Below, one piece after another: positions 3,520 through 49,729 of a DNA stretch of 52,949 nucleotides (position 1 is its first letter; every line of letters starts with the position of its first letter). Source of the stretch: Parcubacteria group bacterium (GTDB taxonomy: Bacteria > Patescibacteriota > Minisyncoccia > Phycocordibacterales > DATDWN01). The notes below the pieces were generated by a model. It worked only from the letters and a program-made list of their open reading frames with translations. It was not told the origin of the DNA and searched no databases. Location of the stretch: assembly GCA_039740895.1 (NCBI GenBank), contig JBCLGS010000003.1:1-52949 (forward strand), written 5' to 3'. A program made the position numbers and the translations under genes.

Positions 3520-3670
3520 CCCGACTTTAAAAGAAGAATTTCGTTGAAGTCATGTCTTTTTTGGAGGCTTCGCAAGCCGGGTAGGCGAGACTTGAGGAAA
3601 ATTTCAACAGAAATTTATCCGTACTCCAAAAAAGATATGACGAAAAAGAAATTCTTCTTTTCAAGTCGGG
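3520..3670. repeat. long imperfect palindrome, family 3 (core TTTTGGAGGCTTCGCAAG.CGGGTAG.CGAGACTTGAGGAA ... ATCCGTACTCCAAAA)
   Basis: Outer arms CCCGACTTTAAAAGAAGAATTTC / GAAATTCTTCTTTTCAAGTCGGG. The core matches 36423-36616. The 3' arm overlaps the first 3 nt of the tmRNA. Confidence 0.8.
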
Positions 3671-4062
3671 GGTGACAGGTTTTGACATAAAGTGTGCGTT
3701 AATTCGCGCAATGCGGAGTTCCGAAAACTCCTTAATAATTTCGGAAACCATACGTGCAAAGAATTCTCTTTCACAGGTAAAATCTCCATACTTCGGTATG
3801 TCAGACTTTGCTTTCGCTCGCGTTTAAGTTTTACTTAAACCCCTGCGGGGTGTGCCATTTTGATATCTGATACGAATGGTTGCATCTTATAACTTCAGGT
3901 CCGGATTATTGTCTGCCTCAGCAGTAATCTCAAAAAATGAGACTCGCCTTTGTTGTGTTTTGTTTATTTTTTAGTAACAAAGTCTAAACATCAAAATATG
4001 CTATGCATTGTAGACCCGTTTTAATCTGCTTTATGGATGCGACTTCGATGTCGCCATCTCCA
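3668..4062 (+). ncRNA. ssrA: tmRNA (ssrA)
   Basis: The 5' end GGGGGTGACAGGTTTTGAC pairs with the 3' strand CATCTCC, giving an acceptor stem with a G3.U70 pair. T arm is GCGAC-TTCGAT-GTCGC, with discriminator A and no encoded CCA. It sits directly downstream of smpB. A tentative tag ORF starts at GCA AAG AAT ... and ends ...GAC TTT GCT TTC GCT CGC GTT TAA (AKNSLSQVKSPYFGMSDFAFARV). Confidence 0.85.
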
Positions 4063-4186
4063 CTCGACTCACCTTTCCCGAAGAAAGGTTCGCTCGTGGC
4101 AAGCCACCTAACACCGCTCTTAATTGAGTGGTGTTTTGCGTATTAAGGTGAGTCGAGTGCCCTGAGCGTAGTCGAAGGGCTGAATT

Positions 4187-5048: not shown

Positions 5049-6455
5049 CTAAAACTCTTTTTCCAAAATTTTTGGATTTGTTTTGTAGATTTTCAATATC
5101 AGTTCCCCAAACAACGAATTTGTCCAGCCGAACCAAGGTCTGGTGTAATCTTTTGGTTTATCTACATTTACACTTTCGTGCATAAAATAAGTTCCAGCAT
5201 GTGTTTCTTTCAAGATTTTCAGGCAGGAAATTATTTCCTCTTCATTTTCTGTGGTGAGTGCTTGCATAATAGTAGCCATAGGCCAAAAATGATCAACTGT
5301 GCCTGTGTGAGGACTTGTTAGACCGGAAAATTTTCCCTTTGCGTAAAATGGGTTCCATTCACTAAATATAAACTTCTTTGTTGCTATATAAATGGGATCG
5401 TTTATTGAACAGTAACCTAGATATGGCAAACTCAAAAGGCTTGGAACATTTGGGTCATCCATCATACAAACCGAGCCAAAGCCATCAACTTCATAGGCAT
5501 ATATATCGCCAAATTCTTTGTGATTTATAATTCCGTTTTCATTTATTCCCTTATCAATCTGACTGGCGAGTTCAACCGCCAAATCTTTTAATTCCAATTC
5601 TCCAATTTTCTGAAGTATTTTGGAAACTTCCCGAAGACTGACTGAAGCCATGGCATTTGAAGGTATAGAATAAGGAAAAACGGCTTCATCGTCGGACGGA
5701 CGGAAAACACTTCTGACCAAACCACATCTTTTACCGGGATAACCAAAACCTCGCATCCTGACGGCGGGGTGGGGATTTTTGTCTGGGCCATAAAATTGAA
5801 ATAAGTTTTTGAGATTTTCTTTTGAAAGTGTTTTTTGTTCTTTTTGCAAAACTTCTATCAATTTTCTAAACGCCAAGAGCCATATTTTATCAAACGGAGT
5901 CATATCCGAAGTTTGTCCGAAATATCCAGTGGATAATCGCATAAATGCACATAAACTATCCAATTCATATTTTCTCTCCCAAACACCTTTTTGCCAAGCA
6001 TTTCCTTTTTGCCAGCCAGGATTTAATTTTTGTTTCTCATCTACATTAAAAGCATTGGCGTATGGGTCAATTAAAATATTTTTTGACTGTCTGTGAATTA
6101 AACCTATAAACAAATTTTTAATTTTCTTGTCTTGATTTATAAATTGCAAATAAGGCCAAACTTGGTTTGTAGAATCCCGAAGCCACATCGCTGGAATATC
6201 ACCAGTAGAAATATATGTATCTGGTCTGCCATTTTTCTCCGAATAGTGTGTCATTGTGTCAAGCGTGTTTGGTAAACATTGAGAAAACATCCGTTTAATA
6301 TCCTTGTCCTTAATATTTTCTGAAATTTTAACAATTTCCCGATCAATAAAATCACTAACAAATAAACGGTCTTTGACTTTTGGCCGAGATTTGAGGTGCA
6401 TAAATTTATTATCTTTTTTCTTGTTCTTTTTTATCATATAGACATTATACAACAA
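5049..6455 (-). CDS. glycoside hydrolase family 125 (DUF1237, exo-alpha-1,6-mannosidase-like)
   Basis: 468 aa. The motif [19 protein letters not shown] and the length fit GH125. The start could be an internal Met (MIKKNKK). Confidence 0.7.
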
Positions 6456-6540
6456 TATTCAAGTCATGGAACATATCAAACTGTTGCTTTTTTCTGCAAA
6501 TAGTGCTATATTTTTTCTGTTAATTATAAATAAACGCATG

Positions 6541-6660
6541 GAAATTTCAGATTTGGATGAAATCCGAGGCGGACGATGAAAAATATGAGGAGATGTATCG
6601 AGTATACATTGACGAAAATTTTTCAAGTCCAACGAAGGAGTTCGCCAAATATGGAATTTC
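6541..6660. repeat. long imperfect palindrome, family 2
   Basis: Arms GAAATTTCAGATTTGG / CCAAATATGGAATTTC. It shares the blocks GGATGAAATCCGAG.CGGA and TCCAACGAAGGAGTTCGCCAAAT with 10035-10156. Confidence 0.8.
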
Positions 6661-6669
6661 TCACATAAA

Positions 6670-7179
6670 TTGTCTACATATATAAGAATCAATAATCAAA
6701 TACAGGCACCAGAACTTCGTGTAATCATGGAGGATGGAGACAACTTGGGAGTAATTTCTTTCAAGGAGGCATTGGATAAAGCCCGTGAACTTGGACTTGA
6801 TTTAATTGAAATTTCACCGAAAGCCGAGCCACCAGTTGCAAAAATCATGGATTATGGTAAGTTTCAGTATGCTGAAAACAAAAAGCAAAAGGTAGCAAAA
6901 GCTAAAACTCATATAGTAGAGGTTAAGAATATTCAGGTAAAGGTGGGCACAGGAGATAATGACCTCCAGCTCAAGGCAAAAAAGGCTTCGGAATGGCTAA
7001 AAGAAGGAAATCGCATCAAAATTGATCTCTTTCTACCAGGCAGAACGAAATATATGGATTTGAACTTTTTGAAAGAGAGAATGGACCGAGTTTTGAAGCT
7101 CATCACAGAGGAATTCAAAGTAGCAGACCCTGCGAAGAAAAGTCTAAAGGGACTATCAATTGTAATAGAGAAAGCATAA
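6670..7179 (+). CDS. infC: translation initiation factor IF-3
   Basis: 169 aa containing IRINNQIQAPELRVI and the conserved C-domain. The ORF opens with TTG and has no clear SD. Non-AUG starts are the rule for infC. It is followed by rpmI-rplT. Confidence 0.9.
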   Translation: MSTYIRINNQIQAPELRVIMEDGDNLGVISFKEALDKARELGLDLIEISPKAEPPVAKIMDYGKFQYAENKKQKVAKAKTHIVEVKNIQVKVGTGDNDLQLKAKKASEWLKEGNRIKIDLFLPGRTKYMDLNFLKERMDRVLKLITEEFKVADPAKKSLKGLSIVIEKA

Positions 7180-7303
7180 AAAACTTCCAAATCTAGCACA
7201 TTTCTTCGGTACTCGTTTTGTTTGTTAGAAGCAGTATACTTATACAGCTTCGTCACAAACAAAACTCCGCCCATCGAAATGTATCTAGATTATGAAAGTT
7301 TTT
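7180..7303. repeat. long imperfect palindrome, family 1 (apical GTATACTTATAC)
   Basis: Begins right at the infC stop codon and is about 90% identical to 23663-23784. Arms AAAAACTTCCAAATCTAG... / ...CTAGATTATGAAAGTTTTT. Confidence 0.85.
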
Positions 7304-7317
7304 AATAAATAATTAAT

Positions 7318-10029: not shown

Positions 10030-10034
10030 AAACG

Positions 10035-10156
10035 GAAAATTCCAAATTTGGATGAAATCCGAGACGGATGAGAAATTTGTTTGGAGCCATACTTTCTGTA
10101 TGGTGACAAATAAATTTTGACATCCAACGAAGGAGTTCGCCAAATTTGGAATTTTC
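10035..10156. repeat. long imperfect palindrome, family 2
   Basis: 17-bp perfect arms GAAAATTCCAAATTTGG / CCAAATTTGGAATTTTC. The internal blocks are shared with 6541-6660 and the apical hairpin is CCATAC-TTTCT-GTATGG. Confidence 0.85.
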
Positions 10157-10394
10157 AGTAGGACTACGGCTGATACTTCCCTAGCTTGATACTATAAGTG
10201 GGTGTTCTCACATGTACTCGTCAGAACAAATAATGCTCATCGTGGTGCAAAAATATTGAACTCCCTGAATTAAAGTTAGATAGAAAATATCAAACGCAAT
10301 CCTTTTTATATTATACTCTAAAATAAATTATTGGTAAACACATACTGATATTCACCTACTACTTAAAAAATTATATCAGATTATTTTAGAATAT

Positions 10395-11278: not shown

Positions 11279-11440
11279 TTAGACCTGTTCCCAAATAAGC
11301 TTTCGGAGTAATTTCATCAATTTTAGAGCGAAACGAAGAGAAAAAGATAAGGAATATCGAGATATTTCGAATATTTTTCTCAAAGTTGTAGCCCAAAATT
11401 GATGAAATTAGCCGAATTTGTTATTTGGGAACAGGTCTAT
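11279..11440. repeat. long imperfect palindrome abutting the ndk stop codon
   Basis: Arms TTAGACCTGTTCCCAAATAA / TTATTTGGGAACAGGTCTAT match at 19 of 20 positions. There is an inner pair TAATTTCATCAATTTT / AAAATTGATGAAATTA. The right arm overlaps the ndk TAG. Confidence 0.85.
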
Positions 11441-12021
11441 TGATCAACACCAAATCTTTTATAAGAATAGGTTGGAGCTGAACCAAACCAATGTTTTACT
11501 TCGTGTAAAGCTTCTTCAGGGGTTTCAGAACAATGAATAATATTCATTACAGCCCTTTTCTCTTTGTTGGCTAAGGCAGGCGAATCTATTGAGAAATCAC
11601 CACGAATAGTTCCCATATCAGCTTTGTATGGCAATGTATCGCCAGCAATTTTACGAACGACATCCACAGAATGAACACCCTGAATTACCATTTTGACCAG
11701 AGGAGCCGATTTCATGTAGTCAATAAGCCATTTTCTAATTTCTGGACCAATTTTTGCTGGATCGGATGTGCCAAAATCAGCTACCAAATCTTCGCCATAT
11801 TTTTCGTATGTCGCTCTAGTTTTGTGACCAAGGCGCGTAACCCATTCCTCATTTTTTGGATAATGGTTATCTAATTGGTCGTGTGAGGGCTGGAACATCT
11901 CTAAAGCAATAATTTTCAAATCACGCTTTTCAAAACGTTGAATAACTTCACCAATCAAGCCTTTTCTAACACCGTCAGGTTTTATCATTACAAATGTTTT
12001 TTCTTCTTTTGGATGTGACAT
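11437..12021 (-). CDS. ndk: nucleoside-diphosphate kinase (long form)
   Basis: 194 aa with FVMIKPDGV and NIIHCSE (active-site His). It carries an internal insertion relative to the roughly 140-aa forms. Confidence 0.85.
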   Translation of the reverse strand: MSHPKEEKTFVMIKPDGVRKGLIGEVIQRFEKRDLKIIALEMFQPSHDQLDNHYPKNEEWVTRLGHKTRATYEKYGEDLVADFGTSDPAKIGPEIRKWLIDYMKSAPLVKMVIQGVHSVDVVRKIAGDTLPYKADMGTIRGDFSIDSPALANKEKRAVMNIIHCSETPEEALHEVKHWFGSAPTYSYKRFGVDQ

Positions 12022-15775: not shown

Positions 15776-16138
15776 ATGAATATAGACACAATGCATTTTA
15801 AGAATCTATTAGAAGCAGAATTGAAGACTCTCGAGGAAGAGCTTTCAACTATTGGTAGAAAAAACCTAGATAATAAAGGTGATTGGGAACCAATTGAGTC
15901 AAATGCAAACGAAGGTGCTGCCGAAGAAGGTGATTTGGCCGAAGGAATGGAGGAATTTGAAAATAATAGAGGTATCCTATATCAGCTTGAAACTCGCCTA
16001 AACGAGGTTAAGTTGGCTTTGGAAAATATCGAGAATGGTAAGTTTGGTCTTTGTGAAGTAGATGGTGCGGAAATTGAACTTGATAGATTGGAAGCCAATC
16101 CAGCGGCTAGTACCTGCAAGGCTCACATGAACGATTAA
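15776..16138 (+). CDS. DksA/TraR-like protein with degenerate zinc finger
   Basis: 120 aa with a coiled-coil N-terminus. The C-terminal GKFGLCEVDGAEIELDRLEANPAASTCKAH resembles the DksA/TraR C4 region but keeps only 2 Cys. TATAAT at 15762-15767 lies 8 nt before this ATG. Confidence 0.55.
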   Translation: MNIDTMHFKNLLEAELKTLEEELSTIGRKNLDNKGDWEPIESNANEGAAEEGDLAEGMEEFENNRGILYQLETRLNEVKLALENIENGKFGLCEVDGAEIELDRLEANPAASTCKAHMND

Positions 16139-16260
16139 ATCTTGGTCTTTTTGTCCGATTTTTTTGTTGTTCGTTCCGTTCGCTTCCGCAGAGTATACTT
16201 ATACACTTTAGTCGCGATACTCACTCACAACTTCAAACTCGAACAAAAATCCTCAAGATT
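16138..16260. repeat. long imperfect palindrome, family 1 variant (apical GTATACTTATAC)
   Basis: Starts inside the stop codon of the preceding gene. Arms AATCTTGGTCTTTTTGTCCGA / TCGAACAAAAATCCTCAAGATT. Confidence 0.8.
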
Positions 16261-16289
16261 CATTTTACATTAAAATTATTTTTGCCAGA

Positions 16290-18443: not shown

Positions 18444-18455
18444 AATAAAAATAAT

Positions 18456-18488
18456 AAAAACTACCAAGGCTTAGCCTTGGTAGTTTTT
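18456..18488. terminator. bidirectional rho-independent terminator
   Basis: 10-bp stem CTACCAAGGC / GCCTTGGTAG with loop TTA, flanked by an A-run and a T-run, between convergent genes. Confidence 0.85.
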
Positions 18489-18521
18489 ATTTGTTTGGAT
18501 AATTCTAAGTTTAAATATTTA

Positions 18522-20597: not shown

Positions 20598-20679
20598 ATT
20601 ACTTTTGCAATCTGAAAAATTCTGCTATAATAGTTAACATATTAACAATCAATTATTCTAGATAATCGCGATCTTTCAC

Positions 20680-20781
20680 AATTTAGTCAAGGCCGCGTAT
20701 AAAATTTAAAAAGGCTCGAATGTGTATACTATATACAGCGAGAACCTTTTTCAAATTTTAGACGATAGGATTGGCTAAATT
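20680..20781. repeat. long imperfect palindrome (apical GTATACTATATAC)
   Basis: Arms AATTTAG..AAAATTTAAAAAGG / CCTTTTTCAAATTTT..CTAAATT. Confidence 0.75.
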
Positions 20782-20801
20782 TAGAAGCTCCATACAAAAA
20801 C

Positions 20802-21589: not shown

Positions 21590-23119
21590 ATGTCATTAAA
21601 AATAGTAATGCTCTTCGTGAGCATAGCGATCACAGTAGGTGTGGTCTTGGGTTACTATTTGCGACTTCTTATCTCTCTCGGACGAAAAGGTTCGATGGAA
21701 ATAAGATTGAAACAAATAGAAATGTTAGCAAATGAAAAAGAGAAAGAAATAATTACGGAAGCAGAAAAAAAAGCGGAAGGATTATTGAAAGTTGCTAGAC
21801 TAGAAATAAAGGAGAAAGAACATGAGAATAAAAAGAACGAAGACAGACTTATAAAAAAAGATGAGCTTCTTGACCGTAGACAAGTAGATATCGACCGTGA
21901 GGTAGAGGAAATCAAAAAACGAATTGAAGAAATTAAAACAATTCGCGAGCAAACAGAAAAAGTTGAAGCTCAAAAACAAGATGAGTTGCAAAAAATTGCC
22001 AAGCTTTCATTCGAGGAAGCAAAGGATGTAATTTTGAAAACCGTTGAGAAACAATCTGAGGAGGATATTTTGGCAAGAATGAAGAAGTTGGAAAAAGATG
22101 GTGAAGACAGGTTGGAACAAAAAGCTAAAGATATTTTAACCACATCTATTCAAAGACTTTCCAGCTCTGTTTCTTCAGATATGTTTACCACCCATGTTTC
22201 AATTCCAAACGATGAAATCAAAGGGAAAATAATCGGCAAAGAAGGACGAAATATAAAAGCATTTGAGCGAGCCACTGGAGTTGAAGTTATCGTTGATGAT
22301 ACTCCTGGTTCCATCACCATCTCATCATTTGACCCAGTCAGAAGACAGGTTGCAAAATCTGCCTTGGAAAAACTTATTGCCGATGGAAGAATTCAACCAG
22401 CAAAGATTGAGGAGTTCGTTCAGAAGTCAGAACAAGAAATAAATAAGGTTATAAAAGAGAAAGGTGAACAAGCTGTGTACGAAACAGGAGTTCTCGGACT
22501 TGATCCTAGAATTATTTCTATCCTCGGTAGACTTCACTTCCGAACAAGTTACGGACAAAATGTTCTTCAGCACTCAATAGAAATGACACATATTGCCGGA
22601 ATGCTCGCTGAAGAGATTGGGGCAAATGTAATGATTGCAAAGGCAGGAGCACTTGTTCACGATATTGGAAAAGCTTTGGACCACGAAGTTGTCGGCACAC
22701 ATGTGGAAATAGGAAGAAGAATTCTACAAAAATTCGGCGCAGATGAAAATATAATTAAAGCAATGCAAGCTCATCACAATGAGTATCCTTATGAAACACT
22801 TGAATCAAAAATAGTAAAATCAGCAGACTCAATATCTGGTGGTCGTCCTGGTGCGAGACGAGATAGTGTTGAAAATTATTTGAAACGACTATCAGAACTA
22901 GAAGCCGTAGCAAGTTCATTCAAGGGTGTTGAGAAATCATACGCCCTACAAGCTGGCCGTGAAATCAGAATATTCGTTACTCCAGCAGAAATTACAGACT
23001 TGGAAGCAAAGAAAATGGCAAGAGATATCGCAGTAAAGATTGAAAGTGAGTTAAAATACCCTGGTGAAATTAAAGTGACAGTCATCCGTGAGTCACGAGT
23101 TATAGAGTTCGCAAGATAA
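21590..23119 (+). CDS. rny: ribonuclease Y
   Basis: 509 aa with an N-terminal TM, a coiled coil, a KH domain (GKIIGKEGRNIKAFE) and an HD domain (HDIGKA). Confidence 0.95.
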   Translation: MSLKIVMLFVSIAITVGVVLGYYLRLLISLGRKGSMEIRLKQIEMLANEKEKEIITEAEKKAEGLLKVARLEIKEKEHENKKNEDRLIKKDELLDRRQVDIDREVEEIKKRIEEIKTIREQTEKVEAQKQDELQKIAKLSFEEAKDVILKTVEKQSEEDILARMKKLEKDGEDRLEQKAKDILTTSIQRLSSSVSSDMFTTHVSIPNDEIKGKIIGKEGRNIKAFERATGVEVIVDDTPGSITISSFDPVRRQVAKSALEKLIADGRIQPAKIEEFVQKSEQEINKVIKEKGEQAVYETGVLGLDPRIISILGRLHFRTSYGQNVLQHSIEMTHIAGMLAEEIGANVMIAKAGALVHDIGKALDHEVVGTHVEIGRRILQKFGADENIIKAMQAHHNEYPYETLESKIVKSADSISGGRPGARRDSVENYLKRLSELEAVASSFKGVEKSYALQAGREIRIFVTPAEITDLEAKKMARDIAVKIESELKYPGEIKVTVIRESRVIEFAR

Positions 23120-23239
23120 ACAAATAAAATCACCTCATCTGCGTTGTTGCGGTGCAAGTTTGCTCATTCACCGTACATTAGTACGGCTCATTCACAAACT
23201 TTTCCACGCCTAGCATCTGAGGCAATTTAATTTGTTTAT
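23116..23239. repeat. long imperfect palindrome starting at the rny stop codon (apical GTACATTAGTAC)
   Basis: Arms ATAAACAAAT..CCTCA..AAGTTTG..CCGTAC / GTACGG..CAAACTT..TGAGG..ATTTGTTTAT. Confidence 0.8.
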
Positions 23240-23389
23240 CAGAAAGTTTTTTACACAATATTTTAATCCACAGTCAATATGTTGCATTAAAAAAGTGTTG
23301 GTATATAATACCATTATAGTAGCTAGTGGTAGAATCTAAAAAATTCTACTGAGTTGTTTTATTATTAGTGGTTAATCAAAATCATAATT

Positions 23390-23662
23390 ATGAACAAGGC
23401 ATCAATAGTGGACGCAGTCCATGAAAAACTTGGCGGAACAAAAGTTCAAGCAGAAGAAGTTGTTGATTTAGTTGTTGACTCAATAGTTGGCACACTAAGG
23501 AATGGTGGTGAGGTCTCAATCGCGGGCCTAGGAATCTTCTCAACAAAAACTCGAGCTGCACGACAAGCTCGAAACCCACGAACAGGTGAAGCTATCTCTG
23601 TTCCAGAGATGAGAGTGCCTAAATTCCGCGCAGCGAAGGCTCTTAAAGAAGCAGTTAAATAA
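23390..23662 (+). CDS. hup: DNA-binding protein HU
   Basis: 90 aa containing GFGTF-like LGIFSTKTRAARQARNPRTGE, the HU/IHF signature arm. Confidence 0.95.
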   Translation: MNKASIVDAVHEKLGGTKVQAEEVVDLVVDSIVGTLRNGGEVSIAGLGIFSTKTRAARQARNPRTGEAISVPEMRVPKFRAAKALKEAVK

Positions 23663-23784
23663 AAACTTCCAAATCTGGCGCATTTTTTCGGTACTCATTT
23701 TGTTTTCTAGAAGCAGTATACTTATACAGCTTCGTCACAAACAAAATTCCGCCCTTCAAACTGCATCCAGATTAGAAAGTTTTT
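23663..23784. repeat. long imperfect palindrome, family 1
   Basis: Starts directly after the hup stop codon. It is about 90% identical to 7180-7303, with paired (compensatory) differences in both arms. Confidence 0.85.
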
Positions 23785-23852
23785 GAAAAATAATTCTTTT
23801 GAAAGAAACCAAAAAACTCCTGAATAGGAGTTTTTTGGTTATTTAATGAATA

Positions 23853-28563: not shown

Positions 28564-29082
28564 CTATAAGACAATGTCTTCTAGCAAAAAAACTCTCGAC
28601 ATCCTCTTTTCAATATCTACATATACAGTTACTACATCAAACTGCCAATCTGTTTCATCTGAAACCCGTCCAGCTGAACAGTCGTTAGGGCGGGCATCTT
28701 TTTCTAATAAATAGGACTGGATTACACGCGAAAGTCTTTTGAGCTTCCATGGATGCATATTATCCTCTGGCCTGTAGGAGTCATTATTTGTTCCACGTGT
28801 AACTTCCCTATTCTGAGAATGCGGGATTTCACCGGAAACACTTTTTACTTCAATAAAATGTAAAATTTTGTTATTTTTAACCATAAATATATCTATAATG
28901 GATCGGATGATTGAGTTTGTAGGACTAGATGTAGCCACGATATCAATTTCTCCCCACTTTCTTGAATAGTTACGGTCAACAATCTTCCAACCCAATTTTT
29001 TCAAATATTGGCACGCGCAGTCCTCACCAATCTGGCCGATTACTTGTTTCTGGGTAGGATTTAAGGGTTTTTTGTTGTACAT
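28564..29082 (-). CDS. YraN-family (UPF0102) endonuclease-like protein with insertions
   Basis: 172 aa, against about 120 aa typical. GEDCACQYLKKLGWKIVDRNYSRKWGEIDIVA and HFIEVKS are the YraN motifs. It contains a 30-nt palindrome at 28665-28694. Confidence 0.65.
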   Translation of the reverse strand: MYNKKPLNPTQKQVIGQIGEDCACQYLKKLGWKIVDRNYSRKWGEIDIVATSSPTNSIIRSIIDIFMVKNNKILHFIEVKSVSGEIPHSQNREVTRGTNNDSYRPEDNMHPWKLKRLSRVIQSYLLEKDARPNDCSAGRVSDETDWQFDVVTVYVDIEKRMSRVFLLEDIVL

Positions 29083-35711: not shown

Positions 35712-35839
35712 TATAGAACTTACGCAGTCGAGTCAAGTTCGAGGCGAAAACTATATTTTAGAACGAGATGTACTCTTGTACATTGAGTGATAAAATATAG
35801 TTTTCAACAAAGAAATTGGCCGAATGCGTAGGTTCTATA
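35712..35839. repeat. long imperfect palindrome, family 4 (blocks AGTTCGAGGCGA ... GTACTCTTGTAC ... TCAACAAAGAAAT)
   Basis: Arms TATAGAACTTACGCAGTCG / CGAATGCGTAGGTTCTATA. It abuts the stop codon of the 35840-36400 gene and has the same architecture as the insert inside rsmA. Confidence 0.85.
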
Positions 35840-36400
35840 TTAGTTAGTTGTTCTCTCCGTGGTAGTGGCCTTATCTCCAACTCTTAATCCTTTCAGACTA
35901 CCGATGGCCTTTGTTAAGGAAGTGTGAGCTTGATTTAGTAGTTTTTTAGTTGATTTTGTTATCTTCTGAAGATCTGCAAAATGTCCTTTAAACTCTTTTG
36001 TGGTGCTAGCATTTGCATATGTATTATCTGCCCCGTCGCTATGTATTTTCATTGTGGCCATTAATAGCTTTGCATCGGCAATGAATTTTTTCGCGTCCGC
36101 TATGGCTTTTTCAGCTACTGTCGTGTCTGGAGCTTTTGCTGTAACACTTTCAGACTTTATTTTTGCGATTCTTGTCTCCATACGAGTTATAATATTTTCC
36201 AATCGCTCAATGGTTGCCTGAAATCTATTTATAATTTTATTGTAGCGCTTTTCTACTTTTATGGCTTCAGTGGTATTTACTTTAATTACATCTCTTACAG
36301 GTGTTGGTTTTACTAATTCATTTTGAGCTAATGCAATTCCAGTAATACCAAATAACAAAACTACAGCTGACATTCTTAATAAGATTTTTTTATTTTTCAT
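35840..36400 (-). CDS. secreted coiled-coil protein
   Basis: 186 aa. Signal peptide MKNKKILLRMSAVVLLFGITGIALA, and the mature part is predicted to be alpha-helical. Confidence 0.5.
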   Translation of the reverse strand: MKNKKILLRMSAVVLLFGITGIALAQNELVKPTPVRDVIKVNTTEAIKVEKRYNKIINRFQATIERLENIITRMETRIAKIKSESVTAKAPDTTVAEKAIADAKKFIADAKLLMATMKIHSDGADNTYANASTTKEFKGHFADLQKITKSTKKLLNQAHTSLTKAIGSLKGLRVGDKATTTERTTN

Positions 36401-43623: not shown

Positions 43624-43628
43624 AAAAA

Positions 43629-43644
43629 CACTGCCCATGCAGTG
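43629..43644. terminator. bidirectional terminator hairpin
   Basis: CACTGC-CCAT-GCAGTG, flanked by A7 and CTTTTT, between convergent genes. Confidence 0.6.
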
Positions 43645-43648
43645 CTTT

Positions 43649-44716
43649 TTAGAAAGGATTTCTAGCTCCACGGATCTCGAAATGGAGGTGAACTCCCGTT
43701 GATTTTCCTGTGCTTCCCATTTTCCCAATAATTTGTCCCTGCTCCACATGATCCCCTGAGGAAACATTCACTGCACTCATATGACTATACAATGTTTGAG
43801 TTCCGTTTGGATGACTGATAACGACATACTTACCATAACCACCATTCCACCCTGAACCTTTTGCGATAATAACATCACCTTCGGCAGAAGCTAAAATATT
43901 TGCTCCATAACTAGAGGCCAAATCAACACCGTTGTATCCATGTATACCTTGGGTTTTTAAACCACCAATAATTGGTCTCATGTAGTAACCATCATAAACT
44001 GGGTAGACACTTGCTCTACCCATCACACTCTTTCCTGAATTTGCCGATGTTCTAATTGGTGTTATTACCGTAACCTCACCATCGGGTATTACAATTTCAT
44101 CACCAACTGCAAGTTTTGAATTTTTTGAAAGGTCATTGAATTGTAAGATTTCATCCAAATCTGCTTTATATTGTTTTGCTATGCTTTGCAATGTATCTCC
44201 TTTTTTAACTAAATGTTGAACTCCAGAAATTGGTAAGATGACAAGCTTCTGACCAACTGTAATTGGTTTTCCTTGCAAATCATTTGCCCAGATAATTGTA
44301 TTTTTTGTAACACCAAACATTATGGCTATTTCCGACAATGTGTCGCCTTTATGAACAACATACAAACTAATCTGGTCTGAAGATGGGAAAATAACTTTTG
44401 AGTCACTGGCGTTTTGAGCATCAGCAAGAAGAGATGTTCCTCCAACAATAGAAACACTGCCGTCTGAAGTTGGGGCATGAGGATTTGGTGAGTTTACAGC
44501 CATAAGTGCTGTAGCTACTGATTGGGAATTTTCAATTTTTACATCTAACTGTTTTGTTCCATAAAAACAAAAATCATCTTTCCATGGCAAAAGACTACAG
44601 GCACTAACCTTAATTGGTGTAAAAATTGACGCTAGGAGTATCATCATTACTGATGTAACCGTCATTATGTTCACCGCAGAATTTCTTCCTAATCCCGCTT
44701 TACGCTTTTGGCGCAA
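43649..44716 (-). CDS. LysM-domain M23 family peptidoglycan metalloendopeptidase
   Basis: 355 aa with two LysM repeats (HKGDTLSEIAIMFGV; KKGDTLQSIAKQYKA) and an M23 C-terminus (GVHLHFEIR). The ORF opens with TTG, and an internal ATG at 44665 is a possible start. Confidence 0.9.
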   Translation of the reverse strand: MRQKRKAGLGRNSAVNIMTVTSVMMILLASIFTPIKVSACSLLPWKDDFCFYGTKQLDVKIENSQSVATALMAVNSPNPHAPTSDGSVSIVGGTSLLADAQNASDSKVIFPSSDQISLYVVHKGDTLSEIAIMFGVTKNTIIWANDLQGKPITVGQKLVILPISGVQHLVKKGDTLQSIAKQYKADLDEILQFNDLSKNSKLAVGDEIVIPDGEVTVITPIRTSANSGKSVMGRASVYPVYDGYYMRPIIGGLKTQGIHGYNGVDLASSYGANILASAEGDVIIAKGSGWNGGYGKYVVISHPNGTQTLYSHMSAVNVSSGDHVEQGQIIGKMGSTGKSTGVHLHFEIRGARNPF

Positions 44717-44970: not shown

Positions 44971-46965
44971 ATGAATTATTTAGAAAGTCTCAATACCGAA
45001 CAGAGAAAAGCAGTACTGGCCACCGAAGGGCCTGTTTTAATTGTTGCTGGAGCAGGAGCTGGCAAAACCAAGACTATCACACACAGAATCCTTCACTTAA
45101 TCCAAAACGGGGTAAATCCGGAAAATATCTTGGCCATAACCTTCACCAACAAAGCAGCCAAAGAAATGCGCGATAGAGTTCTTAATTTATTAGAGAACAA
45201 TGGTCAAAAGTTTGGCATACCTACTATCAGTACATTTCACTCTCTCGGTGTTAGAATTATCAAGGAAAATGCATCTCTTCTAAACCTGCCGAGACATTTC
45301 ACTATATATGACAAAACTGACTCAAAAAAAGCCATTAAAGATGCTGTGGTTCAAATGGGTTTAGACCCAAAAGAGCACTTGGATAAAATCCAACATATTA
45401 TTTCCAGTGAAAAAGGTAGAGGTATCAGCGTCAAAGAATTTATGGAAAATGGAGCTTATGACTTTTCCTCGGAAATGACAAAAAAAATTTGGCAAAAATA
45501 TGAAAAAATACTAAAGAGAGAATCGGCTCTGGACTTTGACGACCTGCTTTTAAAAACCTTAAAACTTTTGAGAAATAAAGAAATCCGAGAAGTATATCAG
45601 GATCGTTTCAAATATATTCATATAGATGAATACCAAGACACCAACAAAGTTCAAAATGATATTGTTACATTTTTAGCTGAAAAACACAGAAACCTTTGTG
45701 TGGTGGGAGATGGAGATCAACTAATCTACGAATGGCGAGGAGCTGAAATAAAAAATATGTTGCATTTTGAAAGAAGTTATCCAGAAGTTCAAACTTTTTT
45801 TTTGGAACAAAATTATCGTTCAACAAAAAATATTTTGGCAGTAGCAAATGAAATAATTCAAAAAAATAATTTTCGTATACCAAAAAAACTTTTCACAGAA
45901 AATATAGAAGGGGAGAATATTGGACTTTTTAAAGGGAGGAATGAAATGGATGAAGCGCATTTCATCGCACTGAAATCCAGAGACCTTATAGAAAAAGGTG
46001 TTTTACCTGAACAAATTGCTGTACTATACAGAGCCAATTTCCAATCACGAGTATTGGAAGAAGCCTTCCTGGCATATGCAGTTCCGTACCAAATGCTTGG
46101 AACAAAGTTTTTTGAAAGAAAAGAAATTAAAGATGTAATGTCCTTCATAAAAGCTTCACTAAATCCTGAAGGGTTCAGTGACTTTGCTAGAATTATAAAT
46201 ATTCCTGCCAGAGGAATCGGAAAAGTTACAATTCAAAAAATAATAGATGGAAAAGAAAATGAACTACCTGGGAGCTCAATAATAAAAATAAATAATTTTA
46301 GAGAAATGTTGGTGGATTTCAAAAAAGTTTTAGAAAAAGAAAAACCATCTGTGTCTTTGAAATATATAATTGAAAAATCTGGAATGGAAAAAATGTATTC
46401 AACTGGTCTAGAAGAGGATACAGAAAGATTGGAAAACATTATGGAACTTGTTTCACTTGCTAAAAAATACGACCCCGATAATAAGGCAGGTACCGAAACT
46501 GCAGAAGGCTCTCTTCTGCTTCCTGCAGAAGAGAGCCTTCTGCAGGAAAAAAACGAAGATGGTTTGGAGAAATTTCTGACGGACTCTGCTTTGGCCTCGG
46601 ACCAAGACTCATTGGATGAACAAGTAAAAGGAGTTAAACTTATGACAGTACACTCATCAAAAGGTCTTGAATTTGATTATGTTTTTATTTGTGGACTTGA
46701 AAATGACCTTTTCCCACACAAAGGGTTTGGTCAAAAAAGAAAGAATAGCGAGGAAAGGGAGGGAGAAAGAAGACTGTTTTATGTGGCCATAACTAGAGCT
46801 GGAAAGAAACTTTTTTTGACTTATGCCGAGACTCGTACTATCTTTGGTACTATGCAGGTCAATGCTCCATCTGAATTCATAGATGACATCCCTACAAAAT
46901 ACATTGAGCAAGAAGGGTTTAGTGGGCAGAAAGCACATAAACCATTGTTTAGTATTGACTTCTGA
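44971..46965 (+). CDS. pcrA: UvrD/PcrA family ATP-dependent DNA helicase
   Basis: 664 aa with motif I AGAGAGKT, motif II DEYQD, and the HSSKGLEF and VAITRA motifs. Confidence 0.9.
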   Translation: MNYLESLNTEQRKAVLATEGPVLIVAGAGAGKTKTITHRILHLIQNGVNPENILAITFTNKAAKEMRDRVLNLLENNGQKFGIPTISTFHSLGVRIIKENASLLNLPRHFTIYDKTDSKKAIKDAVVQMGLDPKEHLDKIQHIISSEKGRGISVKEFMENGAYDFSSEMTKKIWQKYEKILKRESALDFDDLLLKTLKLLRNKEIREVYQDRFKYIHIDEYQDTNKVQNDIVTFLAEKHRNLCVVGDGDQLIYEWRGAEIKNMLHFERSYPEVQTFFLEQNYRSTKNILAVANEIIQKNNFRIPKKLFTENIEGENIGLFKGRNEMDEAHFIALKSRDLIEKGVLPEQIAVLYRANFQSRVLEEAFLAYAVPYQMLGTKFFERKEIKDVMSFIKASLNPEGFSDFARIINIPARGIGKVTIQKIIDGKENELPGSSIIKINNFREMLVDFKKVLEKEKPSVSLKYIIEKSGMEKMYSTGLEEDTERLENIMELVSLAKKYDPDNKAGTETAEGSLLLPAEESLLQEKNEDGLEKFLTDSALASDQDSLDEQVKGVKLMTVHSSKGLEFDYVFICGLENDLFPHKGFGQKRKNSEEREGERRLFYVAITRAGKKLFLTYAETRTIFGTMQVNAPSEFIDDIPTKYIEQEGFSGQKAHKPLFSIDF

Positions 46966-46977
46966 TTCCTTCAGTCA

Positions 46978-47200
46978 TTTTACCAATAAGTTTTTTGAGA
47001 CTTCGCAGGCGATTTAGAAAACAACGACGAAAATTAAATAAACCTGAAGCACTGTTTGAGCACAGGTAAGGGAGTGAAACGACACTTATCCTGGCGAGTT
47101 TGCGAGAAGGCTATGAATTGAGGAGATTGTTTTCTTAGAGCGCCGAGACAAGGAAAATCGTACCAACGATTTATCCGGTCTCTAAAAACTTATTGTAAAA
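46978..47200. repeat. 223-nt long imperfect palindrome, related to family 3
   Basis: Arms TTTTACCAATAAGTTTTTTGAGAC / GTCTCTAAAAACTTATTGTAAAA. The inner TTGAGACTTCGCAGGCG ... ATCCGGTCTCTAAAAA parallels the family 3 core. It fills the whole uvrD-rsmA spacer. Confidence 0.8.
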
Positions 47201-47207
47201 TAAAACT

Positions 47208-48092
47208 ATGTTTCAAAAAAAATCACTAGGACAAAATTTTCTGAAATCTCCAAAAATAATTGGTGATATTGTTTTAGCATCTGGTGTAAAAACAAGCGAT
47301 AATGTTTTGGAGATAGGTCCAGGAGATGGAATACTTACAAAGGAATTATTGAAAACTGGAGCAAATGTGGTTACGGTGGAAAAAGATGATAGACTCATAC
47401 CAATTCTTTCCGAAAAATTTTCAAAAGAAATTTCTAGCGGTCAACTTAAAATAATTCACGCAGATATTCTAGATTTAGATATTGATTCTCTTGTACTTTC
47501 AGATTTGAGTGCAGTTCGAGGCGACAGTGAGGCTTGTGACCAAACTGTACTAATGTACAGTGCGGGAACAAACGGAGCTGTCAACAAAGAAATGCGCGAA
47601 ATCTGGAAGTACAAGCTAGTGGCAAATATACCTTACTATATAACTGGGCAACTAATTAGAATTTTTTTGGAATCAAATAATCAACCAGAATCAATGACTC
47701 TGCTTTTACAAAAAGAAGTTGCTGAAAGAATTGTAGCGAAAAATAAAAAAGAAAGTTTGTTATCTCTTTCAGTCAAAGCTTATGGTGTGCCGAAGTATAT
47801 CAGGACGGTGGGCAGGGGAGCATTTACCCCATCTCCAAATGTGGATTCTGCAATAATTCATATAAGCGGTATTTCAAAAAAGAATTTTGAAAGCGTAAGT
47901 GAAGAAAAGTTTTTTGAAATTCTTCATCTTGGATTTGCTCACAAAAGAAAACAGTTACTGCCAAATCTAAGCGAAAAGTATCCGAGAGAAAAAATTACCG
48001 AAGTTTTCGAAAAGATAGGTTTAGATAGTAAGTGTAGGGCAGAGGATATTGCGATAGATACATGGATTCGTTTATGTCTTGAACTAAAATAG
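47208..48092 (+). CDS. rsmA: 16S rRNA (adenine1518/1519-N6)-dimethyltransferase RsmA/KsgA, with a 42-codon palindromic insert
   Basis: 294 aa containing LGQNFL, EIGPGDGILT and VANIPYYIT. Confidence 0.9.
   Translation: MFQKKSLGQNFLKSPKIIGDIVLASGVKTSDNVLEIGPGDGILTKELLKTGANVVTVEKDDRLIPILSEKFSKEISSGQLKIIHADILDLDIDSLVLSDLSAVRGDSEACDQTVLMYSAGTNGAVNKEMREIWKYKLVANIPYYITGQLIRIFLESNNQPESMTLLLQKEVAERIVAKNKKESLLSLSVKAYGVPKYIRTVGRGAFTPSPNVDSAIIHISGISKKNFESVSEEKFFEILHLGFAHKRKQLLPNLSEKYPREKITEVFEKIGLDSKCRAEDIAIDTWIRLCLELK
47490..47615. repeat. family 4 long palindrome inserted in frame inside rsmA (codons 95-136)
   Basis: CTTGTACTT..CAGATTT..AGTTCGAGGCGA, then 56 nt including GTACTAATGTAC, then TCAACAAAGAAAT..AAATCTG..AAGTACAAG. 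The intergenic copy 35712-35839 has the same two blocks with the same 56-nt spacing. Confidence 0.8.
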
Positions 48093-48160
48093 AATCAGTG
48101 GCAGGTATCGTTTTTAGGTCTCCAGAAAATAATATGGTAGGGATGTGCTATGATGGCTGA

Positions 48161-49729
48161 ATGATATTATTCAATATAAAATCGGAGGGTATAAAAATTC
48201 TTTTCCTCGCATCATCATTTATTGCTGGATTTTCTCTCATGACAGTACAGCTTATTTCTGCACGAATGATTGCTCCATTGGTTGGTAATTCTATTTTTAC
48301 ATGGACTTCAGTTATAGGCATCACGCTCTTGGGTTTGGCATTGGGAAGTTTTGTTGGTGGTAAAATCGCGGATGCGTATACTCACAAGTCAACGCTTCCT
48401 TTGTCTTTTGTCCTTTCATCAATTTCTGTTTTTTCAATTCCGTTTTTCTTAAACAAAACAAGCTGGCTCTTGGAATCATCCGAGTCAATTATATTCTTGA
48501 ATGTAGCTCTCTCAACTTACCTATTTTTGGTTCCGGCTTTTTGTCTCGGAATAATTCAACCTATAATTCTCAAAAAATTTTCAATTGACCATGCCCGTCT
48601 TGGTTCAGAGTATGGATTGTTATCTGCGGTCTGGTCGTTTGGGAGCATAGCAGGAGTGTTTTTAACAGGTTTCTATTTCATATCAAACATAGGAAACACT
48701 GAAACCGTGTTCCTTGTTTCGGGAATGCTCGCCATTACGGGTGTAATACTCGCGACTCGTACACAAGAAAGGAGACTTTTTTATTTAATTATTGGGGTTC
48801 TTATGTTACTTATCGTTGCATGCTTTTACTATTACTATTTTTTTAATATCAAAAAACAAAATGTAATTTTTACCAAAGAAACCGATTATTACAACGTCCG
48901 AATTGTCGACATATACCTGCATAAATACGGGAAATCAAGAATTTTAATGCTGGATTTTGATACTCACAGTATTGAATCAGAATATATTATAGAAAATGTA
49001 TACACTGAGATATATCCTGCTTTTGCGGTGTTCAAGAAACAAATACAGGATATAGCCGTGCTAGGTGCTGGTGCATACACACTCCCCAAGCACCTTCAAA
49101 GCTTTTATAAAAATTCAAAAGTAACAGTCATAGAAATTGACCCTGCCATAAAAGATATTGCGGAAAAATACTTTAAACTAGATAGCACAAAAATAGCCTC
49201 TATTACAGGAGATGCGAGGCAAATCATAAAACAGTCCAACAAAAAATACGATTTAATTTTCGGCGACACCTACAATTCATTCATTTCCGTCCCTGGATAT
49301 ATGCTAACTAATGAATTCAATAACGAAATAAAAAACAAACTTAACCCAGGTGGTATATACGCGATAAATTTTATCAGCTCCATCGTGGGTGAGAATTCGG
49401 ACTTATTCAGAAGTATTCTTACGACAATGAAGAAGACCTTTCCTTCTTTTTATGTTTTTGCGTTCGAGGATCATCCAGAAGCAACCCAAAATATTATTAT
49501 CATCGGGGTAAATGATGATATACACATTCCAGAAAGTAAAGTGAAACAAGAATTATCTCGTAGTAAAAACCCATCTCTCGCGGATAATCTTGTGGATAGT
49601 AAAAATCATTTAAGCACTGAAGGTGGAATACTTCTCACGGATAATTTTTATCCTGTAGAAAAATTGATGGTGGATACTATTAGAGAATACTTTCAAAAAA
49701 ACCTTGCTTCCAATGAGCTTATCCTGTAG
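48161..49729 (+). CDS. fused polytopic membrane domain / spermidine synthase-like methyltransferase-fold protein
   Basis: 522 aa. About 7 N-terminal TM helices are followed by a Rossmann region (VLGAGAYTLP, DLIFGD). Confidence 0.6.
   Translation: MILFNIKSEGIKILFLASSFIAGFSLMTVQLISARMIAPLVGNSIFTWTSVIGITLLGLALGSFVGGKIADAYTHKSTLPLSFVLSSISVFSIPFFLNKTSWLLESSESIIFLNVALSTYLFLVPAFCLGIIQPIILKKFSIDHARLGSEYGLLSAVWSFGSIAGVFLTGFYFISNIGNTETVFLVSGMLAITGVILATRTQERRLFYLIIGVLMLLIVACFYYYYFFNIKKQNVIFTKETDYYNVRIVDIYLHKYGKSRILMLDFDTHSIESEYIIENVYTEIYPAFAVFKKQIQDIAVLGAGAYTLPKHLQSFYKNSKVTVIEIDPAIKDIAEKYFKLDSTKIASITGDARQIIKQSNKKYDLIFGDTYNSFISVPGYMLTNEFNNEIKNKLNPGGIYAINFISSIVGENSDLFRSILTTMKKTFPSFYVFAFEDHPEATQNIIIIGVNDDIHIPESKVKQELSRSKNPSLADNLVDSKNHLSTEGGILLTDNFYPVEKLMVDTIREYFQKNLASNELIL

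Follow-up and report, generated by a model that had tools for sequence, protein, structure and literature searches.

A Patescibacteria hairpin repeat family with a copy lying in frame, and probably translated, inside rsmA/ksgA

Rickettsia palindromic elements (RPEs) are palindromic repeats that lie in frame inside conserved genes and are translated there as extra, fold-compatible peptide segments (PMC10969869). MITEs (miniature transposable elements with inverted repeats) of the ERIC, QMITE2 and SPRITE type are ~127-bp imperfect palindromes that sit at gene 3' ends, can affect mRNA processing and occasionally occur in open reading frames (ORFs; PMC10969869). Here we analyse a 52,949-nt stretch of a Parcubacteria group bacterium (contig JBCLGS010000003.1, positions 1 to 52,949; the window), in which a 126-nt palindrome at 47490-47615 occupies codons 95-136 of the rRNA methyltransferase gene rsmA/ksgA. 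We put the probability at roughly 80% that this segment is a translated in-frame, RPE-like copy of a new structured repeat family. Both this family and the RPEs are multi-copy and palindromic over their whole length of ~100-150 bp, and the rsmA copy resembles an RPE in its behaviour, as it lies in frame in a conserved ORF and would be retained as peptide. What is said below on how the family is copied and what it does, we infer. The gene and the parts of its element are as follows.

47208..48092, + strand: rsmA/ksgA coding sequence, host of the element (ORF listing; 294 amino acids)
47490..47615, + strand: in-frame hairpin element, codons 95-136 of rsmA (sense orientation; 107 bits with the covariance model R1 introduced below; open frame; predicted loop 97-131)
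47514..47524, + strand: 5' conserved block GTTCGAGGCGA (purine-rich internal loop; left edge of the ~83-nt core; encodes V-R-G-D)
47544..47561, + strand: apical hairpin P4, ACTGTAC-TAAT-GTACAGT (from the fold; P4 pairs covary family-wide)
47581..47593, + strand: 3' conserved block TCAACAAAGAAAT (right edge of the core module; encodes V-N-K-E-M)

An earlier note on this DNA had described the palindrome, its arms and its apex, and all of this holds. The whole 126 nt form a single hairpin (dG -59.5 kcal/mol, z -8.72; 0 of 200 shuffles fold as well), whose outer arms 47490-47506 and 47599-47615 (CTTGTACTTTCAGATTT and AAATCTGGAAGTACAAG) are a continuous 17-nt inverted repeat with 94% complementarity. 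Equally sound is its claim of two blocks in common with an intergenic element at 35712-35839. Exact GTTCGAGGCGA is found in the window at positions 35737 and 47514 only and exact TCAACAAAGAAAT at 35804 and 47581 only, with the same inter-block distance of 56 nt in both copies, and the intergenic copy adopts the same shape (dG -61, z -11.95). The reading frame used in rsmA meets stop codons in the intergenic copies, so that the shared blocks are conserved as nucleotides and not as protein.

A scan of species-representative genomes for the block pair yielded 29 loci, all but one chance match of which fold into the same hairpin. They come almost all from metagenome-assembled genomes (MAGs) of Patescibacteria (Kaiser-, Lloyd-, Morani-, Zambryskibacteria and others), with several copies per genome. 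From an alignment of 32 non-rsmA copies, in whose consensus 31 of 38 pairs show compensatory double changes, we built the covariance model R1. It scores the rsmA segment at 107 bits (E ~1e-22) and the orthologous rsmA inserts at 56-95 bits (8 of 8 tested). That a model trained without any rsmA copy recognises the segment supports its membership in the hairpin repeat family. In the 53-kb window R1 finds eight further copies beside rsmA, or nine with filters off, so that the two copies of which the earlier note was aware become about ten; this amounts to ~1 copy per 5 kb, and ~50 further copies are found in Patescibacteria MAGs. Across 59 aligned copies 91.5% of cells are paired as compared to 66.5% in shuffles, double changes are seen in 36 of 38 pairs, and the covariation score is 0.67 as opposed to ~0.1 with partners slid. 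The family has no match in Rfam 15, as the gathering-threshold scan of the window returned tmRNA and tRNAs only and an E-value scan of copy B noise only. Viral contigs gave no match to the exact block pattern, and our literature searches found no description of this hairpin family. Two observations may be added: a structurally good copy (45 bits) adjoins a stop codon in the gammaproteobacterial isolate Paraferrimonas sp. (L029:963-1092), where it may be due to horizontal transfer or contamination, and a 100-nt hairpin at window 3545-3646, just 5' of the tmRNA gene (3668-4065), has a family-like outer stem, a TTTCAACAGAAAT block and a weak R1 match (14.7 bits, E 0.3), and is probably a degenerate copy.

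RsmA itself is recognisably a KsgA protein. It matches Pfam RrnaAD over its full length (residues 4-293, 184 bits, E 2.8e-54) and, in alignment with its orthologues, retains the invariant columns G37/G39/G41, E58, D86 and N140-I-P-Y. AlphaFold2 predicts a confident KsgA fold, with a predicted local distance difference test score below 50 solely at residues 1-7 and 97-131, and Foldseek superposes this model on KsgA structures with a TM score of ~0.8. The earlier description of an open ORF with intact catalytic motifs holds. The earlier note had proposed to model whether the insert forms a surface excursion; the model places residues 97-131 in a predicted disordered surface loop and indicates that the insert leaves the KsgA fold intact. 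The loop in question connects methyltransferase motifs III (D-I-L) and IV (N-I-P-Y). In the 120 closest RsmA orthologues, which are of Parcubacteria type and ~260 aa long, the spacer from D-I-L to A-N-I-P-Y-Y is 15 aa in 69 as against 50 aa in the window protein, and the spacer had rightly been called overlong. Ten of the 120, window RsmA among them, have a spacer of 50-52 aa, and the element is present at this loop in no fewer than 10. The outermost ~9 bp of the stem are codons in native position, LVL and KYK, and the net gain is ~35 aa (105 nt), so that the figure of 126 nt is right for the element but that of 42 codons too high for the insertion. Although universally conserved, ksgA/rsmA is dispensable in model bacteria. 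Hence, where a member of the repeat family had been said to have colonised an essential gene without inactivating it, membership and intact ORF stand but 'essential' is too strong a word.

The rsmA copies for which DNA is available, those of the window and of eight orthologues, all (9/9) share one orientation, lie in frame 0, contain no stop codon and have a length divisible by three, whereas frame 0 is open in only 5 of 49 other family copies. This conservation of frame supports, at the level of sequence, that the insert is translated by read-through; peptide SDLSAVRGDSEACDQTVLMYSAGTNGAVNK is an example of an insert-spanning sequence in RsmA. A census of copies inside and outside coding sequences, as the earlier note had proposed, placed none of the 50 non-rsmA copies in a credible coding sequence, which makes rsmA the sole internal coding copy found. 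Likewise, a profile of the insert peptide run against 1.84 billion protein representatives gave full internal matches in RsmA only, the remainder being short ORFs, gene termini and partial repeat-like matches in a few long proteins, and a peptide word-index search returned two short ORFs only. The likeness to RPEs extends to an in-frame, probably translated copy, but not to frequency: intragenic copies are rare here (one of ~10 in the window, 0/50 elsewhere), whereas Rickettsia RPEs account for 44 gene integrations in one genome. The host phylum differs as well, being Patescibacteria here and Alphaproteobacteria for RPEs.

The insert is not private to this genome. It is present in at least nine independent assemblies (JGI, NCBI, ENA, Logan), and in the orthologues the homologous segment is palindromic with compensatory changes and not encoded by non-palindromic DNA. 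Together with the dozens of family copies, the independent assemblies also answer the earlier caveats that block pair and spacing might recur nowhere else or that the locus might be an assembly artefact. The orthologues that carry the insert do not form a monophyletic group: P0002 has it, whereas P0057, 89% identical to P0002, does not. The inserts fall into the subtypes alpha (window, L030, L034, L035) and beta/gamma (L031, L036, L037 / L032, L033), which interleave with intergenic copies in the element tree. Within subtypes the insert is far better conserved than the gene that carries it (98% versus 74% between L034 and L035, with third codon positions at 100% versus 55%; 91% versus 69% between L031 and L036), whereas between subtypes it is less conserved than the gene. 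The high-identity tract of L034 and L035 reaches ~75 nt into each flank, like a recombination tract. A metagenome scan for rsmA-resident copies in any frame gave five loci (L040 is on the same contig as L034), with a full-length copy overlapping the match in four and none in L042; in a glacier DNA run only 6% of the words were present, and 47282-48605 had no coverage. All in all, we see here an old or shared insertion of patchy distribution and not a recent private event.

The same RsmA loop holds other material in further genomes: a diverged 140-nt hairpin in L045 (552-699, -60.7 kcal/mol), a 60-nt GC-rich perfect hairpin in L046 (571-630, z -7.7), a 23-nt remnant-like hairpin in L038 (~1692-1714) that has TTGCCAAGGG in common with the L046 hairpin, and peptide remnants in P0060 and P0086. 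In L036 a 13-bp hairpin (3847-3875) lies in a C-terminal extra segment of RsmA. Coding palindromes are recurrent in Parcubacteria rsmA. In the insert-free rsmA of L039, the loop sequence CAGTTCGGAAGAAAT (10271-10290) resembles the two blocks fused; its spacer is of ancestral length, and the resemblance may be due to chance.

The family has a distinctive anatomy. Its outer stems P1/P2 are locus-specific, and its inner stem P3 and apical P4 vary with compensation and are enlarged to multi-hairpin domains in some copies. The conserved blocks GTTCGAGGCGA and CAACAAAGAAAT are non-complementary and purine-rich and oppose each other as 3x3 internal loops, in the order UUC:GAA, GAG over AAA, G:C, CGA over CAA. 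The two strands are not equivalent: in 59 of 60 copies the GTTCGAGG strand gives the more stable fold of the two, with a mean advantage of 10.5 kcal/mol, and the stems contain 133 G-U pairs as compared to 31 A-C mismatches (48 and 26, respectively, after removal of four G-U-rich pairs). Since this bias is equal in the rsmA copies, where the GTTCGAGG strand is the mRNA, and in the intergenic copies, where it usually is not, it would be a property of the element's own single-stranded form and not of the host mRNAs.

The copies are moreover modular. In paralogues of the same genome the cores are 96-100% identical and the outer stems unrelated, yet self-complementary (core and outer stem 100% versus 50% in the L002 pair, 96% versus 40% in the L010 pair). 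The core of ~83 nt spans exactly AGTTCGAGGCGAAA to TTTCAACAAAGAAAT, identity stopping at the conserved blocks, whereas a pair at orthologous loci shows similar divergence in core and outer stem (87%, 88%). The window holds the reverse mosaic, in that copies 6537 and 10032 share outer stem and blocks and differ in their inner stems. These mosaics mark the conserved blocks as module boundaries, at which a mobile core may end or conversion or template switching may have joined two sequences. The copies of the window other than that in rsmA are listed here with their R1 scores.

6537..6665, + strand: copy just upstream of infC, in sense orientation (79 bits)
7176..7305, - strand: copy at the infC stop codon, antisense to infC (45.7 bits)
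10032..10160, + strand: intergenic copy with outer stem and blocks as in 6537-6665 and different inner stems (89.7 bits)
11307..11413, + strand: shorter copy, 24 nt past the stop codon of opposite-strand ndk (29.8 bits)
16134..16263, - strand: copy at the stop codon of an opposite-strand dksA-like gene (40.6 bits)
20666..20795, + strand: weak, diverged copy between divergent genes, upstream of clpP (22.4 bits, E ~0.005-0.01)
23113..23241, - strand: copy at the stop codon of opposite-strand rny, for RNase Y (54.9 bits)
23658..23786, - strand: copy at the stop codon of an opposite-strand HU gene, ~88% identical to 7176-7305 over its full length (57.1 bits)
35712..35840, + strand: intergenic copy, 3' end adjoining the stop codon of minus-strand gene 35840-36400 (119.8 bits)

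Many of the copies also have their position in common. With abutted ORFs of at least 100 codons counted, which leaves the HU gene (90 aa) outside the count, 29 of 50 non-rsmA copies and one ambiguous copy have their 3' end -6 to +16 nt from a stop codon on the opposite strand, and only two or three of the 50 abut one on the same strand. In the window the genes so abutted are infC, rny, the dksA-like gene, the HU gene and gene 35840-36400, with ndk 24 nt off. The rsmA copy has the opposite of this usual orientation, in which the GTTCGAGG strand is antisense to the abutted gene. Replication direction as the cause of orientation was rejected, as the elements flip with each local gene. The infC gene is flanked by two copies, of which the sense one stops 5 nt before the predicted TTG start and the antisense one overlaps the stop codon. 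Copy ends are weakly conserved (0.4-0.8 bits), and the junctions inspected show no consistent flanking direct repeat, though this search of the flanks was not exhaustive. At the junction of comM and an M23 peptidase gene the window has a plain intrinsic terminator (43624-43650), and family copies take its place in L035 (6668-6798) and L039 (6466-6596); the two genomes carry different subfamily members, and in one the outer stem takes in the last native peptidase codons. Between comM and the family copy L039 has, at ~6290-6400, a second, different long palindrome (ACACATACTTTTTGGAGCACGG ... TCTCCAAAAAGTATGTGT), which suggests that these genomes hold hairpin repeats of yet other families. Between genes of the window, at 43624-43650, 18453-18491 and 975-1023, there are intrinsic terminators of the classical bidirectional type, with an A-tract, a short GC stem and a T-tract.

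On these grounds we propose that 47490-47615 belongs to an interspersed hairpin repeat of ~125-130 nt that is abundant in Patescibacteria of Parcubacteria type and whose usual home would be the first nucleotides past a stop codon, the GTTCGAGG strand running antisense to the gene so abutted. In the orientation seen in rsmA one reading frame can remain stop-free, and the element would be transcribed and translated with the gene, giving RsmA ~35 probably disordered residues with the KsgA fold intact. Structure-preserving substitutions would retain the hairpin, its outer stem pairing native x-Y-K codons with codons 5' of the insert. The family may be non-autonomous and REPIN- or MITE-like. Its copying or homogenisation would then proceed on the GTTCGAGG strand, single and folded, and the conserved blocks would be the points of recognition or recombination. 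The rsmA copy may spread among rsmA alleles by homologous recombination and be lost by hairpin-mediated deletion, which would explain its patchy distribution. Its history would then be one of a single or a few old insertions at one permissive loop, followed by allelic recombination and erosion by hairpin deletion.

Several points weigh against this proposal. Neither a transposase nor a target-site duplication nor an autonomous parent came to light, and the 43 ORFs of the window that were scanned in Pfam are housekeeping genes. Strong covariation, purine-rich loops and the precise position at stop codons would also fit a structured RNA that is of use to the host, and the strand favoured in folding is antisense to the neighbouring genes, for which we have no clean explanation. 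Finally, the rsmA copies were found via intact protein calls and are thus subject to ascertainment bias, with translation deduced from conservation of frame. In a more speculative version, which we put forward tentatively and hold to be more doubtful than probable, the family would be a new class of Patescibacteria-specific structured single-stranded element, RNA or ssDNA, whose loops serve as docking or recombination sites of a dedicated protein and whose ~83-nt cores are swapped as cassettes between stop-codon stems, the rsmA copy and the other loop hairpins having been exapted for rsmA expression or for the protein.

But could the family not simply be a structured 3'-end element that serves the host as terminator, mRNA-end protector, shield against antisense transcription or protein-binding module, with the rsmA copy as an accidental duplicate and not a mobile insertion? 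This is a possible reading, to which we give appreciable though clearly minor weight. Its tight coupling to stop codons, its replacement of a plain terminator at the orthologous comM/M23 junction, the persistence of copies at orthologous positions across genomes, the very strong covariation and the expanded apical domains, which are reminiscent of structured RNA, all speak in its favour. Yet there is no consistent U-tract 3' of the hairpins, and hence the elements are not canonical terminators, which are moreover present elsewhere in the window. Nor does the logo show a positional promoter signal 5' of the copies, which leaves a small RNA gene with its own promoter unsupported. The better-folding strand differs from the mRNA strand, and the exchange of cores among paralogues, together with presence and absence at orthologous sites, indicates mobility or conversion.

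A second alternative concerns rsmA alone. The hairpin might be a functional cis-acting mRNA structure, such as an RNase III/Y processing site, a place where translation pauses between sub-domains or a target through which the RNA-binding enzyme regulates itself, and be kept for that role and not as a tolerated passenger. Compensatory evolution is evident among the rsmA copies by themselves, in which 19 of 37 pairs are compensated. The outer stem reaches into native codons, pairing the conserved x-Y-K codons with upstream ones, and in L036 both sides have changed together, from GTA/TAC to ATA/TAT. Unrelated hairpins at the same loop in L045, L046 and L038 and the better conservation of insert than host gene in several pairs point the same way. 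Then again, the insert is absent from close relatives (89% identical) and from most orthologues, its fold and strand bias are those of the intergenic copies and so look intrinsic to the element, and hairpins at this loop could merely mark the one permissive site. We therefore think a role of this kind unlikely as the reason for its retention.

Far less probable still is removal of the segment before or during translation, by intron-like excision, translational bypass or as an intein, to leave a mature RsmA without it. A very stable hairpin within a coding sequence may bring such a mechanism to mind, but the frame is open and of length divisible by three in all nine rsmA copies as opposed to 5 of 49 others, there is no ribozyme or intron match in Rfam, 42 codons are far below intein size, and neither a stop codon nor a matched take-off and landing pair is present. 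A lineage-specific protein insertion, de novo coding palindrome or assembly artefact unrelated to the intergenic repeats, for which a de novo-looking coding palindrome in nearby pcrA (46499-46545) could be cited, is refuted by the covariance-model E of ~1e-22 from a model trained on other copies, the stops in that frame in intergenic copies and the presence of the insert in nine or more independent assemblies.

An in-frame copy of an interspersed hairpin repeat remains our preferred reading, and it is instructive to set the family beside other palindromic systems. Integron attC sites are 57-141-bp imperfect palindromes that start at or near the preceding stop codon and whose recognised form is single-stranded and folded, certain conserved bases being left unpaired. 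The family likewise consists of imperfect palindromes, mostly at stop codons, that would fold as a single strand. Identity with attC was nonetheless rejected, since on the strand that folds GTT comes before AAC, and since the blocks lie inside the element and not at its ends (attC: terminal RYYYAAC ... GTTRRRY). In addition, housekeeping genes such as infC, rny, HU and ndk take the place of cassettes as neighbours, and no integrase was seen among the window ORFs scanned. Compared by eye with the hammerhead, hairpin ribozyme, twister, K-turn and sarcin-ricin motifs, the family showed no convincing likeness to any of these RNAs, and Rfam gave no match either.

Parallels are also offered by REPINs, which are hairpin-forming REP doublets that go with RAYT transposases (PMC3116915). 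They have in common with the family the two-arm hairpin of ~100-130 nt, the extragenic position, often near gene ends, the many copies per genome, long-term vertical persistence and strand-specific folding as a single strand. The family differs from REPINs in that its blocks are not mutual reverse complements, 7 of 13 facing positions being purine-purine or A-C mismatches, in that no RAYT or Y1 transposase was seen among the window ORFs scanned, and in that the copied unit is apparently the ~83-nt core with locus-specific outer stems. With MITEs of the ERIC/QMITE2/SPRITE type it has in common the imperfect palindrome of that size and the position at gene 3' ends. Different from MITEs, the family is strictly antisense to the abutted gene and conserved in its internal-loop blocks and not at its termini; no signature of terminal inverted repeat and target-site duplication was seen in the junctions inspected, and no parent insertion sequence was identified among the window ORFs scanned.

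Some observations on the neighbourhood of rsmA and on other genes of the window should be added. The pcrA gene (44971-46965) contains at 46499-46545 a coding palindrome that is perfect over 21 bp (dG -48 kcal/mol, z -7.5), encodes ...AEGSLLLPAEESLLQE... and is centred on native LPAEE codons. The segment around it exceeds its counterparts in L035 and L036 PcrA by ~23 aa, with L039 intermediate. The palindrome is no member of the family found in rsmA and has the look of an inverted duplication. Between pcrA and rsmA lies an unusually long spacer of 242 nt (46966-47207) with a hairpin of ~215 nt (z -4.4). Its 5' arm contains TTTGAGACTTCGCAGGCGA, similar to the 5' block of the family; there is no match in Rfam or with R1, and the hairpin may be an expanded or degenerate relative of the family. 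The products of ndk (11437-12021) and the UPF0102/YraN gene (28564-29082) exceed their Pfam profiles by ~50 aa, and the matches are split or stretched. Hairpins were rejected as the cause of these length anomalies (z -1.7 for UPF0102, no inverted repeats in ndk).

Selfish palindromes translated within conserved genes are best known from Rickettsia, and the rsmA copy would extend them to the Candidate Phyla Radiation, a group with tiny genomes on which streamlining presumably acts strongly. For annotation it is of practical relevance that such repeats give rise to false small ORFs and to core proteins of unusual length. The family, new to Rfam, comprises ~60 structured copies with 36 of 38 pairs covarying and with strand and position at stop codons both fixed, and it provides a handle on the copying of hairpin repeats without a visible transposase, on the organisation of gene 3' ends in Patescibacteria and on protein loops made from repeats.

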